A DNA stretch of 63,882 nt, filler included, from Acidimicrobiia bacterium (lineage in GTDB: Bacteria; Actinomycetota; Acidimicrobiia; Spongiisociales; JAENVV01): NCBI GenBank assembly GCA_041577335.1. It is 3 parts of 3 records of this genome, joined end to end, with 100 filler letters (N's around TTAATTAATTAA, not from the genome) between each part and the next. Parts side by side here need not be neighbours in the genome. Positions count along the whole stretch, not along the records: positions 1 to 22,120 come from JBFGJH010000057.1; 2 more parts are not named here. The stretch is one strand, 5' to 3'. Of the stretch, positions 5,480 to 52,997 are shown one piece after another. Under the pieces are notes generated by a model that saw only the letters and a list, made by a program, of their open reading frames with translations, was not told where the DNA came from and searched no databases. Position numbers and translations under genes: made by a program. Each line of letters opens with the position of its first letter. Within the stretch, counting starts at the first letter, position 1.

Positions 5480-5929
5480 ATGGATACCGAAGCAGTCCCC
5501 GTACTGGATCGGCGATATATTGCCCTCGGCCTCGAGTCGGTTGATCGCGATAGCGCCGTTCTGGCAGCCGGGCGGATGCTCGTAGAGCGCCAGATCGTCA
5601 GCGAGGACTACCTAGACGCAATGCTGAAGCGCGAAGAGACGGTCTCTACGTTCATGGGCAACGGCGTTGCTTTGCCCCACGGTACGTTCGACGCCAAGAA
5701 CGCGGTGCTCGGAACGGGGATCGTGGTTCTGCAATACCCTGATGGGGTGGAATGGCCCAATGGCACTGCTCATCTCGTGGTGGGTTTGGCCGCAAGCAAC
5801 GAAGACCACGTCACGGTGCTTTCCCAGCTCGCCGAAATACTCCAGGACGAGGAATTGTGCCAACAACTGTGGACCACGGATGACGCTGATTTCGTGTACG
5901 ACTCGCTGATGGCTGAGCCTATCGAATGA
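5480..5929 (+). CDS. mtlF: PTS mannitol-specific EIIA
   Basis: REETVSTFMGNGVALPHGT phospho-His motif of the EIIA(Mtl/Fru) family. Confidence 0.92.
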   Translation: MDTEAVPVLDRRYIALGLESVDRDSAVLAAGRMLVERQIVSEDYLDAMLKREETVSTFMGNGVALPHGTFDAKNAVLGTGIVVLQYPDGVEWPNGTAHLVVGLAASNEDHVTVLSQLAEILQDEELCQQLWTTDDADFVYDSLMAEPIE

Positions 5930-7311
5930 AGGCGACCGTCTTCGGCGCCGGCAACATCGGCAGGGGACTGGTGGGGGCGGTGCTGGCAGATAGCGGCTAT
6001 GACCTCACCTATGTCGACGCCGACTCGGCGCTCGTCGCACTGCTCAGTGACGCATCCTATTTCGAGCTCGTCACTCAAGAGAATCGTCGCCGCATCCCCA
6101 TCGAGGCTGCCATCGACGCGTCTGATCTGGATGCAGTCATCGCGTCAGTGGCTCGATCGGAACTGGTGGCAACCGCCGTGGGCGAGCCGATCCTGCGTGT
6201 GGTGGCGCCTGCCATCGGCGCTGGGCTCGAATCCAGCCTGGCAAATACCGTCAACGTGCTGGCCTGCGAGAACATACATCCCAACTCCACGCTGCTCGGC
6301 GACCATATTGCGGCAGCCACCAGCGACGAGGTAACCCGTGGCGTGGGTTTCCCCAACGTCGTGGTGGACCGGATCGTGCCGGGAGCCGGCGGCACCATCG
6401 ACGTCAACGTGGAAACAGAGTTCGACTTTGTCGTTGACGGGACTGCGTGGGTCGGGTCCCGTCCCGAGACGGCCTCCATCACTTTCGCCGACGACATCGA
6501 GGCGTACGAGCTCCGCAAACTCTGGCTCGTAAATGGCATTCACGCCATCACGGCGTGGATGGGAATCGCCGCTGGTCACGAGTACATCCACCAGGCGATC
6601 GTCGACCCGAAGATCCGTGGGGATGTCGCGGCAGCGGCCGAGGCCGCCGCCCGTGCTCTCGCCGACCTCACCGACGAGTTCGAGCTCGAGGCGCTACAGA
6701 CGTACGCCGCCACTGTGCTCGGTCGGTTCGCCAACGCCGAGCTGGCCGACCCGACCGTCCGGGTCGCCCGCAATCCGCTTGCCAAGCTCGGGCCGGGTGA
6801 GCGGATTCTCGGTCCGGCGGTCGCCGCCGAGGCAAGGTCGCTCGATATCGGAGGTTTCGCCGCCGGAATCGCAGCGGCGCTCCGCCTCGAAGACCAGGCG
6901 GTAGTGGGCCTCGAAGAGTTGAAAGAAGAGATCAAGGAGACAGGCTGGGAGCAGTTCCTCGTTGGGCATGGGGGCGTGCCTGAGAAGGGCGCAATCGTCG
7001 AGGCGGTGCGTGCTCAACTCGAAGCTGTTAGTGAGAGAAGGGATACATCGGTGATTTCCGAGGAGATAGTCATAGCGAATCCGTCCGGGCTTCATGCCCG
7101 GCCGGCCGCAGAGATCGTGGAGCAGGCCAAGACGGTCAACGCCACGGTTCAGATCAAGAAGGGAGAGAAGACGGCAAACGCTGCCAGCATCATGTCCGTT
7201 TTGGCGCTAGGCGCTAACACTGGAGATACTGTTACCGTCATTGCCGAGGGTGAAGATGCCGAGGCGGCAGTATCCGCCATGCTCGCAATCATGAACGCTA
7301 CGGAGCACTGA
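5926..7311 (+). CDS. mtlD: Mannitol-1-phosphate 5-dehydrogenase fused in frame to a C-terminal HPr
   Basis: FGAGNIGRG, LACEN, VVDRIVP, RKLWLVNGIHA, RVARNPLAKLGPGERI, followed without a stop by GLHARPAA. Confidence 0.92.
   Translation: MKATVFGAGNIGRGLVGAVLADSGYDLTYVDADSALVALLSDASYFELVTQENRRRIPIEAAIDASDLDAVIASVARSELVATAVGEPILRVVAPAIGAGLESSLANTVNVLACENIHPNSTLLGDHIAAATSDEVTRGVGFPNVVVDRIVPGAGGTIDVNVETEFDFVVDGTAWVGSRPETASITFADDIEAYELRKLWLVNGIHAITAWMGIAAGHEYIHQAIVDPKIRGDVAAAAEAAARALADLTDEFELEALQTYAATVLGRFANAELADPTVRVARNPLAKLGPGERILGPAVAAEARSLDIGGFAAGIAAALRLEDQAVVGLEELKEEIKETGWEQFLVGHGGVPEKGAIVEAVRAQLEAVSERRDTSVISEEIVIANPSGLHARPAAEIVEQAKTVNATVQIKKGEKTANAASIMSVLALGANTGDTVTVIAEGEDAEAAVSAMLAIMNATEH
7051..7311 (+). 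CDS. ptsH: HPr domain with its own candidate internal start
   Basis: GAAGGGA-N7-GTG at 7051. Counting from this GTG gives His15 (GLH) and Ser46 (NAAS) at the canonical HPr positions. Confidence 0.8.
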   Translation: MISEEIVIANPSGLHARPAAEIVEQAKTVNATVQIKKGEKTANAASIMSVLALGANTGDTVTVIAEGEDAEAAVSAMLAIMNATEH

Positions 7312-9460: not shown

Positions 9461-10051
9461 CTACCACCCGTTGCGGTGCAGCTGTTCGTCCAGGGGACGC
9501 CGCCTTCGCTTGACTCCGGAGCCTGTCGGGGCCTCGTCGGGGTCCCGGAACCCGAGTGCGACGATGCCGATCATGTTCCGATCTGCCGGCACTCCGAAGT
9601 GTGCGCGGACGGCCGTGTCATCCGGGATGCCGAAGAACCAGGTGTCGAGCCCGGCATCCACTGCGGCCAGCTGGAGTTGCATCGCAGCCATGCCGCCGTC
9701 CACATCCCAGAAGCGAACCGGCCAGGCGTCGGCGTGATCGAGGCCGAACCCGATCTTGTCGGCTTCTGAGTATCGGTCCAGGTAGCGCTGCGGATCGGAC
9801 CACACCATCACCAGCACGGGCGGACGGTCTGAACCACCATGGTCGCCCTCGTCTTCGCCGGCTGTGACTGCCCAGAAGGCCGCCAATTGATCGGGATCGT
9901 CGACGACCAGAAAATCGATGCCTTGGGAATACCCGGCAGTTGGCGCTCGCCGGGCGATATCGATGATGCGGTCCACCTCGGCAGGCTCGGGCACTTCAGA
10001 GGAATAGCTTCGGACGCTACGGCGAACACGGATGATTTCGGAGAATTCCAT
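9461..10051 (-). CDS. Nitroreductase family protein
   Basis: RRSVRSY, RAPTAGYSQ, DGGMAAMQLQLAAVDAGL. Leaderless pattern TAGGTT-N6-ATG. Confidence 0.9.
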   Translation of the reverse strand: MEFSEIIRVRRSVRSYSSEVPEPAEVDRIIDIARRAPTAGYSQGIDFLVVDDPDQLAAFWAVTAGEDEGDHGGSDRPPVLVMVWSDPQRYLDRYSEADKIGFGLDHADAWPVRFWDVDGGMAAMQLQLAAVDAGLDTWFFGIPDDTAVRAHFGVPADRNMIGIVALGFRDPDEAPTGSGVKRRRRPLDEQLHRNGW

Positions 10052-10139
10052 GTGGCGAACCTAGGCAATGCCATCGGGGCGGGTGCGAGGCCATGGCGAA
10101 AAAACGAGCCGGACAGTGCAGTGGCGTCCGAACCCTTGG

Positions 10140-10670
10140 TCAGGCCAGGACGGACAGAACCTCATCGAGGTCGGCGTGGTCGCCGGCGAACTCTTCGTAG
10201 TCTTCGAACAAGAGCTCGTCTCCCGGCCCGATGACCAGCGTGGCGCCCAGTTGCATTGGTCTCCTGCCTGTCTTGTGTTGGCGATTGCCTTTGATGGTTG
10301 CCCGCACGCCCGCCACCAACTGGCCGGGCTTCACGAGGTCTAGTCCACCAAGGGCGTTCGTCCCGACGATCTCGGCGGCAGATCCGTCCTCGTCCAAGAG
10401 CACATCGAACGGCACCCGCTCGTCCTCGATGAACGCTTGGGCGTATCGCTTCCCTCCCGTGCCGATGGCCACGACGCCCGCGCCTGTTGCAAGGATATCT
10501 TCATATCTGTCGCGGACCTGACCGGCCCGCTCGCGACAGGTCAGTCAGCCAAAGTGGCGGAGGAAGAGGACGACCTGAGGCTTCTCTTTCCAACGATCGC
10601 CGAGGCGTTCGTGGTTGCCATCAGGATCGATGAGCATGTGGTCAGCGAGCTTTGTTACGTCAAAGGGCAT
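10140..10670 (-). CDS. AhpC/TSA-2 (PRXL2/SelU-like) peroxiredoxin-like selenoprotein, UxxC, 176 aa, with in-frame UGA at 10547-10545
   Basis: Track ORFs 10545..10949 and 10140..10472 share one frame, separated only by TGA: VVLFLRHFG-U-LTCRE..VVAIG..PFDVLLD..QLGATLVIGPG. A downstream hairpin is present. Confidence 0.88.
10507..10544 (-). promoter_or_regulatory. Candidate bacterial SECIS
   Basis: After the UGA: CUGUC/GACAG lower stem, GCGGGCC/GGUCCGC upper stem, and loop GGUCA starting after 21 nt. Confidence 0.7.
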
Positions 10671-10795
10671 TGGCTTGGCTTTCGTGGAGGCGATGAGGTA
10701 CAGGCCGCGAGGGTCGGGTAGGGATGGTACCGGTCGCCGATCGGGACAGGAAAACGGGCTCCTGCCTCGACCCTGAGCCCAACTTCGGCCGGCGT

Positions 10796-11086
10796 TCATG
10801 GGACGCCGATGCCGCCGATCGGTGCGGTCTCGATGCGCTGATCGAATCCAGCGATGAGAGGCCGGCCCTTCTCGATCGCCGCCTGCACGGAAGGAAGGCT
10901 GAGGGAGGCGGCATGGGCCTCGGCGCTGTCCCACACCTCCGTTACCCAAATCGCCTGTGGGTCAGAATCCTCCAGGGCCACGATGTAGTTGAGGCAGCCG
11001 GGCACATCGCCGATTCCCGCCAGGATGCCTGCCAGCTCATCCCGTTTTCCTGCAACGGCTCTCATTCGACCGATCAATCCGTACAT
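10796..11086 (-). CDS. Antibiotic biosynthesis monooxygenase (ABM) family protein
   Basis: GKRDELAGIL..PGCLNY..IWVTEVWDSAEAHAASL. SD GAGGAGG. Confidence 0.88.
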   Translation of the reverse strand: MYGLIGRMRAVAGKRDELAGILAGIGDVPGCLNYIVALEDSDPQAIWVTEVWDSAEAHAASLSLPSVQAAIEKGRPLIAGFDQRIETAPIGGIGVP

Positions 11087-11177
11087 GTCCCTCCTCTGGG
11101 CACGAAAGCGGCAGGCTAACGGCCGGGGATCGGGTCATCGGCAGCTTGTCGATTGTGGGATCTCCGGCATCACCCGG

Positions 11178-11588
11178 TCAGTCGAGCTCCGTGAAGAGAG
11201 TGAGCTGCATCCCGTCCGGAGCCTCGATGCGAACGTTGAGTGAGTTCCACGGAGTCATCGCCGGCGCGAAGACCGACGTGGTCTGTTCTTCCCCAATCGC
11301 CGTCGCGACGGCCTCGGGCTCAGGCACTTGAAAGGCGATTCGTACCGGCAACCCGACGTGACGACCGACTTCGATCGTGTCCACCCATCCAGCGTGACCT
11401 GCATCGAGGATCTCGACGGTTGCGTGACCGGCGTCCAGGACGAGCCCATGTCCGTGTTCGTTGGAGAAGTCCGCCAGCTGTTCCAGGCCCAAGCCATCAC
11501 GATAGAAGGCGACGGCCCGTTCGAAGTCGGATGTGGTCAGGACTACTCGAGTCTGAATCACTTGAGGGGTGGTCTTTGGCTCGGGCAT
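11178..11588 (-). CDS. VOC/glyoxalase family protein
   Basis: DFERAVAFYRDGLGL..TPWNSLNVRIEAPDGMQLTLF. Confidence 0.88.
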   Translation of the reverse strand: MPEPKTTPQVIQTRVVLTTSDFERAVAFYRDGLGLEQLADFSNEHGHGLVLDAGHATVEILDAGHAGWVDTIEVGRHVGLPVRIAFQVPEPEAVATAIGEEQTTSVFAPAMTPWNSLNVRIEAPDGMQLTLFTELD

Positions 11589-51956: not shown

Positions 51957-52997
51957 GTGGATGCAGTTCGATTGACCTCGTTCTCGCACGGCTCCGGCTG
52001 AGCGTGCAAGCTCAGCGCTGATGAGCTGGCGCAGGTTCTGCGCCCCTTACACAACTCGCCTGCGACATTGCATCCCGATCTGATCGTAGGTCTCGACGAC
52101 GCCGACGACGGCGGCGTCTACATGACGCCCTCCGGCGACGCACTCGTGCAGACGGTGGACTTCTTCACTCCAATTGTCGACGAACCGTTCGACTGGGGCC
52201 GCATTGCCGCGGCCAACGCTCTCTCGGACGTTTACGCCATGGGCGGTTCCCCAATCACGGCACTTCAGCTCGTGGGCTGGCCCCGAGATGTGCTGAGCTT
52301 CGAGCTTCTCCAAGACGTGATCGCCGGCGGCGTATCGGTCCTCGAACAAGCTCAATGCACGCTCGTCGGCGGCCACTCGGTGGATGATCAGGAACCGAAG
52401 TACGGGTTTGCCGTCACCGGTATCGTTGGGCCTGACCGCCTGATGACCAACGCGGGGGCTCGTGTCGGCGACCGGCTCGTCCTCACCAAGCCTCTCGGCA
52501 CCGGCATCATCTCAACCGCCATCAAACAGGGAGTTGCGTCTCGTGAGGCTCGCGACTCAGCAGTTGCATCGATGGTCCGGCTCAATGACTCGGCCAGCTT
52601 GGCGATGACCGACGCCGAAGCGCACGCCGCCACCGACGTGACCGGATTCGGCCTCCTGGGACACCTTCGGGAGCTGCTCGGCTCGGCCGGCGTGGCCGCG
52701 GTAGTCGACGTGGATGAGATCCCACTCTTGCCTGACGTGTTGAGCCTTGTCTCCGAGGGCGTATTCTCGGGCGGGAGTCAGCGGAATCTCGACTCTGTCA
52801 GCCCGATCGTCACCAATTCCACCGGGGATCCCCGCTGGATGCAGATCCTGGCTGATGCGCAGACGAGTGGCGGCCTGCTCATCTCCATGCCGGGCGCCGG
52901 GCTGGAGGCTCTGATGGAGGCGCTGGAGGCATCAGGAGACACTGCGGCGGTCATCGGAGAGATCGTGCCCGGTGAGTCGTCGGTCATCTTGCGGTGA
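51957..52997 (+). CDS. selD: Selenophosphate synthetase, Sec-containing (UGA at 51999-52001), 346 aa
   Basis: AAGGAGG-N5-GTG, then [19 protein letters not shown] in frame with [49 protein letters not shown]. Confidence 0.95.
52009..52044 (+). promoter_or_regulatory. Candidate SECIS region of selD
   Basis: Two hairpins after the UGA: AGCTCA/TGAGCT (52009-52027) and GGCGCAG-GTT-CTGCGCC (52028-52044). Confidence 0.65.

Follow-up and report, generated by a model that had tools for sequence, protein, structure and literature searches.

We analysed a stretch of 63,882 nucleotides (the window), in which parts of three contigs from the assembly of an Acidimicrobiia bacterium (G000) are joined by filler. 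A gene interrupted by an in-frame TGA lies on the first of them (contig C57), and its features, together with a selenium gene on another contig, are given below by window position.

10140..10670, minus strand: full coding sequence of a SelU/PRXL2-like (AhpC-TSA_2) thioredoxin-fold protein with U42-x-x-C45; 176 aa plus stop.
10545..10547, minus strand: in-frame TGA, likely Sec (U42); TGA in orthologues and metagenomes, aligned with the first Cys of the human PRXL2B CVVC.
10536..10538, minus strand: Cys45, predicted resolving Cys of UxxC, invariant in the alignment.
10512..10530, minus strand: bacterial SECIS-type hairpin, 7-bp stem, GGUCA loop at 10523-10519, 21 nt 3' of the UGA.
10140..10472, minus strand: 110-aa C-terminal fragment in a public gene-caller record (P0003), without the active site.
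51957..52997, plus strand: selD, Sec-type selenophosphate synthetase, TGA at 51999-52001, start codon inferred; other contig, same assembly.

The gene starts with an ATG at 10670-10668 and ends with a TGA at 10142-10140 on the minus strand, and the frame between them is open except for the TGA at 10547-10545. The codons around this triplet, CGC CAC TTT GGC TGA CTG ACC TGT, read RHFG-U42-LTC45. The original prediction of an RHFG-U-LTC site in a frame running to 10140 was thus borne out, with 176 aa and one in-frame TGA. Its assignment of the protein to the AhpC/TSA-2, PRXL2/SelU-like family was also right, as PF13911 (AhpC-TSA_2; 43.4 bits, cut-off 27) and PF00578 (39.3 bits, cut-off 26) were both passed, with UxxC, and PRXL2B was the top structure. 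Against AhpC-TSA_2, the read-through product scored 43 bits compared with 34 bits for the downstream fragment, and the AhpC-TSA and Redoxin families were matched by the full product only. Pipelines truncate the gene, as had been anticipated: 118 of the 120 listed database homologues begin downstream of the UGA, and 40 of the 120 begin at the codon right after it. In two database entries, P0002 and P0112, a Cys at the site is either a true Cys or a database-converted Sec.

An AlphaFold2 model of the 176-aa protein (pLDDT 90.9, pTM 0.88) placed U42 directly ahead of helix 43-54. The top Foldseek match was human PRXL2B (9usa; TM 0.82, rmsd 2.0 Å), with the BCP/PrxQ peroxiredoxins (5epf, TM 0.70) and ResA ranking below it, and the PDB sequence matches were 9us9 and 9usa only (E 8e-7, 21% identity). 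The thioredoxin fold with the PRXL2 insertion and an RxFGCxxC-type motif place the protein with SELENOU/PRXL2. Human PRXL2B is a prostamide/prostaglandin F synthase; PMC13134290 describes it as SELENOU3, and fish and bird SELENOU1 as selenoproteins. The bacterial protein and human PRXL2B both have the motif R-x-F-G-[U/C]-x-x-C, as well as Q-x-G and GD towards the C-terminus; however, PRXL2B is a Cys enzyme and the gene analysed here has a bacterial in-frame SECIS. The prostaglandin substrate of PRXL2B is unlikely for the bacterial protein. The best NCBIfam match, at full length, was NF040769 'SelL-related redox protein' (E 1e-24), with 87.1 bits and thus below the 120-bit cut-off, which is exceeded by a Sec homologue of the same order (L037, 127 bits). 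In SelL, two Sec residues are described as joined in a diselenide (PMC13134290), i.e. UxxU, whereas the present protein, with a single Sec and a single Cys (UxxC), falls outside UxxU.

Catalogues have included Prx-like thiol:disulfide oxidoreductase selenoproteins (PF00578, UxxC/UxxU) since 2005 (PMC1088965, PMC2398784, PMC9312934, PMC13188914). Members of the UxxC family were counted in the data from the Sargasso Sea (PMC1088965) and GOS (PMC2398784), and the family appears in the 2022 and 2026 reviews (PMC9312934, PMC13188914) and in PMC5029168. Our protein is like these in its AhpC-TSA domain, in the UxxC that replaces the TxxC of peroxiredoxins and in a bacterial SECIS directly downstream of the UGA. 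Among the GOS families are 'Prx-like 1-3', and the peroxiredoxin-like (AhpC/TSA) entry cd02970/PF13911 is given with UxxS, in contrast with UxxC here. The 2008 GOS supplementary sequences (PMC2398784; four supplements searched) contained the motifs RHFGU (two) and RHLGU (four).

Were the selenoprotein a true thiol peroxidase (BCP/PrxQ type) with H2O2 as substrate, it could be expected to match Pfam AhpC-TSA, as it does, and to resemble the BCP/PrxQ structures, which stand just under PRXL2B. On alignment to BCP, however, the PxxxTxxC...R triad was absent, with Arg38 in place of Pro, U42 in place of Thr and Gly142 in place of Arg, and C45 at the position of the peroxidatic Cys; moreover, the protein reached 22 bits against a 140-bit cut-off. 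Peroxidase activity of this type is therefore unlikely. As the triad is missing, thioredoxin-type UxxC chemistry is likely, and dithiol-type redox chemistry is predicted with good confidence. The protein is likely to reduce organic peroxides or disulfides, judging by its fold; that its substrate would be a peroxide or endoperoxide rather than a protein disulfide has an even chance.

Codon 42 was TGA in each of the 33 loci with 58% identity or more (28 distinct), in agreement with the conservation of UGA among relatives on which the original prediction depended. The terminal stops of the 28 distinct orthologues were mixed (14 TGA, nine TAG and five TAA), and the C45 codon was TGT or TGC in 28/28. 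A metagenome pattern allowing TGA, TGC or TGT at the site found TGA in 100/100 matches (90 distinct), a result that covers the close clade only, since the pattern fixed flanking residues and diverged Cys forms would escape it. For the window itself, contigs of four public runs gave a single reading of codon 10545-10547 at the DNA level, with no TGC, TGT or other letter listed, and a contig from another study, with 24 differences elsewhere, spans the site with the same codon. Among the public runs that cover the region, none of RNA was listed. Conserved residues upstream of the UGA varied freely at synonymous sites, and both halves of the gene appear from the alignments to be under protein-level selection. 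That the TGA is a genuine stop, in a pseudogene, through a sequencing error or between two separate peptides, would suit the 110-140-aa fragments recorded in databases, a third of which (40/120) start just after the UGA, and the existence of decayed TGA copies, as in genome G338 (see below). However, neither TAA nor TAG was seen in 128 close copies (28 plus 100, partly overlapping), the two halves and the hairpin all bear marks of selection, the downstream fragment would be without the nucleophile, and contigs from other studies carry the same codon. A genuine stop is thus very improbable.

A hairpin with a GG-starting loop 21 nt after the UGA had been predicted, and it was found with a 7-bp stem and a GGUCA loop (GCGGGCC-GGUCA-GGUCCGC), the loop beginning after exactly 21 nt. 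A 36-nt piece folded at -14.7 kcal/mol (z -3.2), and 0/200 shuffles were equally good; for longer pieces around the hairpin, folding was not significant (z -0.9 to -1.7), and the lower stem below the 7-bp hairpin was poorly conserved. The bSECIS model, as set out in PMC13188914, has a loop of 3-9 nt starting with G[G/U], a stem of 4-16 bp, a distance of 16-37 nt from the UGA and an MFE of -7.5 or lower. The present hairpin fits every one of these constraints (5 nt, GGU, 7 bp, 21 nt and -13 to -14.7 kcal/mol). Among the TGA stops that end long coding-like ORFs in G000, only 12 of 911 were followed by a G[G/U]-loop hairpin of equal strength. Synonymous positions were frozen at codons +7, +8 and +10 (top-codon shares 1.0, 1.0 and 0.96), whereas none of the 34 remaining conserved four-fold columns had a share above 0.79. 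The Gly codon of the loop was GGT in 28/28 distinct orthologues and in 90/90 distinct metagenome matches, whereas GGT makes up 16% of Gly codons genome-wide in G000. The GGUCA loop was present in 115/115 distinct sequences, and six of the seven stem pairs were kept in at least 112 of these, the metagenome pattern fixing first and second codon positions within the stem. Pair 18-30 covaried, from G-C to A-U five times and to C-G once. Taken together, the comparison of sequences identifies the hairpin as a SECIS under selection. In most of the more distant homologues the loop lies ~4 nt further out, with AG[G/U]U (AGUU/AGGU) at nt 26-29, and the GGUCA loop at nt 22-26 occurs only in a single well-supported clade, within which L197 retains the distant register. 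Thus the SECIS seems to have moved register inside the coding sequence (10512-10530 compared with L197-L223).

A Sec-type selD on the third contig of the window had been offered as support for Sec use, provided that both contigs came from one genome. This selD is real, with the motif SFSHGSG-U-ACK, and its contig (C64) and that of the gene (C57) are from the same assembly, G000 (90.8% complete, 2.0% contamination), with tetranucleotide r = 0.99 to the genome profile. The selA, selB and selC genes, whose absence would have counted against the prediction, were all found in G000 along with selD, with scores above curated cut-offs (selA 424 bits, selB 338, tRNA-Sec 81 and selD 381). The selA and selB genes are adjacent on contig C3, and tRNA-Sec (UCA) is on C87; across the order, selA and selB were each above cut-off in 37/41 genomes. 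Among the 47 tRNAs found, tRNA-Sec was the sole one with a UCA anticodon. TGA was the commonest terminal stop of G000 (915 of 1464 long coding-like ORFs) and RF2 was found, so the code is not reassigned. A reading of UGA as Trp or Cys by a changed code or suppressor, to which the UGA-to-Trp reassignment reported within the same phylum (Actinomycetota) for Eggerthellaceae (PMC13462651) and the failure to find tRNA-Trp(CCA) in an incomplete assembly might point, is next to inconceivable given these stops, RF2, the single UCA tRNA and a site that aligns to Cys, not Trp.

A profile search of 301 Actinomycetota genomes matched 53 genomes (eight of them unpublished), with one TGA in 55 of the 61 matches, suggesting that the family is almost always Sec across the phylum. 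The U site of 30 fetched loci comprised 28 TGA with an intact motif, one TGC and one TGA with a damaged motif. The selA gene was found in 48/53 matched genomes compared with 206/301 in the whole sample, in which kin are not independent; G001 and G275 had selC and a Sec-type selD with no selA found, nor was selA found in G391, a genome 69% complete. Tandem pairs of Sec-containing paralogues of the SelU-like family were observed at L199 (G281) and L202 (G307). The proposed pairing of Cys with UGA was also seen, with Cys (TGC) at the aligned site of L208, L038 and L047 and Cys in human PRXL2B. Within one genus (g216), G365 (L213) has the TGA, the hairpin, selA, selC and selD, whereas in G341 (L208; 95% complete) the codon is TGC, the hairpin is missing and selA, selC and selD were not found. 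In a tree without eukaryotic sequences, the Cys form of G341 is nested among Sec forms, which, with a midpoint root only, suggests Sec-to-Cys reversion, and the two genomes provide natural Sec and Cys versions for comparing catalysis. In G338 (unpublished, 96% complete), the copy at L221:1480-2028 (minus strand) keeps the TGA with no selA, selC or selD found and with the resolving Cys changed to Tyr, and is likely a decaying gene; TGA by itself is therefore no proof of Sec.

As far as sequence can tell, the UGA of the 10140..10670 gene is almost certainly decoded as selenocysteine. The best explanation as a whole, which we hold to be highly probable, is one Sec-containing SelU/PRXL2-type protein of 176 aa, a predicted thioredoxin-like oxidoreductase. 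It is very likely that this is internal-UGA recoding of a well-known kind, overlooked by gene callers, and that the gene is of an ordinary bacterial selenoprotein type. By the standard bacterial mechanism, SelB-GTP-Sec-tRNA would bind the GGUCA hairpin and Sec would be inserted at codon 42. The fold suggests that the selenolate of U42, where helix 43-54 begins, may attack the substrate, that C45 would resolve the adduct to give an Se-S bond, and that a cytoplasmic reductant, likely the thioredoxin system, would recycle the Se-S form. PRXL2B reportedly uses reduced thioredoxin on an endoperoxide. The gene's same-strand neighbours (9461-11588, minus strand) are a glyoxalase, an ABM monooxygenase and a nitroreductase. 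Of nine neighbours in the window, only a luciferase-like monooxygenase was matched, in 3/63 loci at ~30% identity; as the neighbourhood is not conserved, the substrate stays inferred. An Rfam scan gave nothing meaningful (two matches, E about 0.75), and a scan for promoters and terminators gave chance-level matches, none on the gene's strand. Elsewhere in the window, at 5926-7311 (plus strand), is an ORF which, from a translation read by eye, we take to resemble mannitol-1-phosphate dehydrogenase fused to a C-terminal HPr domain.

Beyond the original prediction, the analysis adds the near-universal Sec of the family across Actinomycetota and at least 11 selenoprotein genes in G000. In eleven UGA genes, a family match spans the UGA and the motif fits; the count, chosen partly by eye, is a lower bound because the scans each missed known members, and for most of the genes it reflects a single genome. 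Besides the 10140..10670 gene and SelD, the likely selenoproteins are at the following positions of G000.

C50:17225 (minus), C5:53011 (plus), C46:14545 (plus), C69:2959 (plus) and C74:10990 (minus).
C14:46951 (plus), C9:37961 (minus), C32:5919 (plus) and C1:127752 (plus).

These nine are FdhA, a second Prx-like protein, two TlpA-like lipoproteins, and Rv2466c/DsbA-like, OsmC-like, AhpD-like, SelW/Rdx and CC/Se-motif proteins. Twenty candidate regions were considered, of which 14 were scanned against families and six were dropped by eye; L181, L182, L183, L185, L187 and L190 were judged to be ordinary stops and discarded. The gene at L178:207-821 (minus strand; G000 C74) encodes a UxxC form of Rv2466c, a family of mycothiol-dependent reductases (PF22234, 128 bits). 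It probably belongs under the listed DsbA-like selenoproteins and would couple Sec to mycothiol chemistry.

A twelfth candidate lies outside the window.

G000 C34:15931-16809 (L188:232-1110), minus strand: candidate selenoprotein of 293 aa, twin-arginine signal, beta-rich, FGFF-U-FDL.

Its motif is F-x-F-[FLI]-U-[FLVI]-D-[LV]-F. The aligned TGA was present in 18 of 20 loci examined across Actinomycetota, the other two being one frameshifted copy, and most loci had a short SECIS-like hairpin with GGU or AGU in the loop. None of the loci examined had a Cys form, and one database protein carries Trp at the Sec site. Pfam and NCBIfam gave no family, and the PDB no sequence match, beyond the twin-arginine signal peptide, and a single-protein search of 150 class-wide genomes returned no match. 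The structural model was weak (pLDDT 53), and it matched no fold at E <= 0.001; the only rows were weak ones for beta-barrels. No name match was found in a 119-entry selenoprotein family table, nor anything on the candidate in a literature search. The candidate is likely an undescribed selenoprotein family, and a family without a Cys counterpart would, if true, be beyond the reach of methods based on Cys/TGA pairs. On balance we lean towards a redox system rich in selenoproteins that lies hidden in uncultured Actinomycetota, in which SelU-like proteins are nearly all Sec, G000 has at least 12 selenoproteins, and the C34 gene would found an undescribed twin-arginine-exported, beta-rich family that has no Cys counterpart.

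The original prediction spoke of a Sec redoxin in a poorly documented lineage. Sec stood, but novelty did not, as Prx-like UxxC proteins are catalogued and Sec use in Actinomarina was reported in 2026. The genus Symbiobacterium is no longer classed in Actinobacteria. It was on the strength of this genus that Actinobacteria were called family-rich in PMC1794560. For Actinomarina, a lineage of Acidimicrobiia, a preprint (bioRxiv 10.64898/2026.04.03.716425) describes universal Sec machinery, Sec-type SelD and unannotated selenoproteins, with ~5 per genome compared with at least 11 in G000; the word 'peroxiredoxin' is absent from its main text. No published text placing the subfamily in Acidimicrobiia was found, family tables being broad. 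The main texts of BSepDB (PMC13326102) and deep-Sep (PMC12013277) do not name actinobacteria, and their databases or supplements may hold these genes; in a genomics paper on UBA5794 (PMC12008989), a term search for 'seleno' gave no hit.

A SelU-like gene will be no surprise to a selenoprotein specialist; the candidate twin-arginine family might be. The result corrects an annotation error repeated in public databases, where 118/120 listed homologues are without the active site, and it offers the SelU/PRXL2 family, which is poorly understood, a small model from bacteria. It is also further evidence that selenium use in uncultured actinobacteria goes far beyond what surveys of isolates had indicated.
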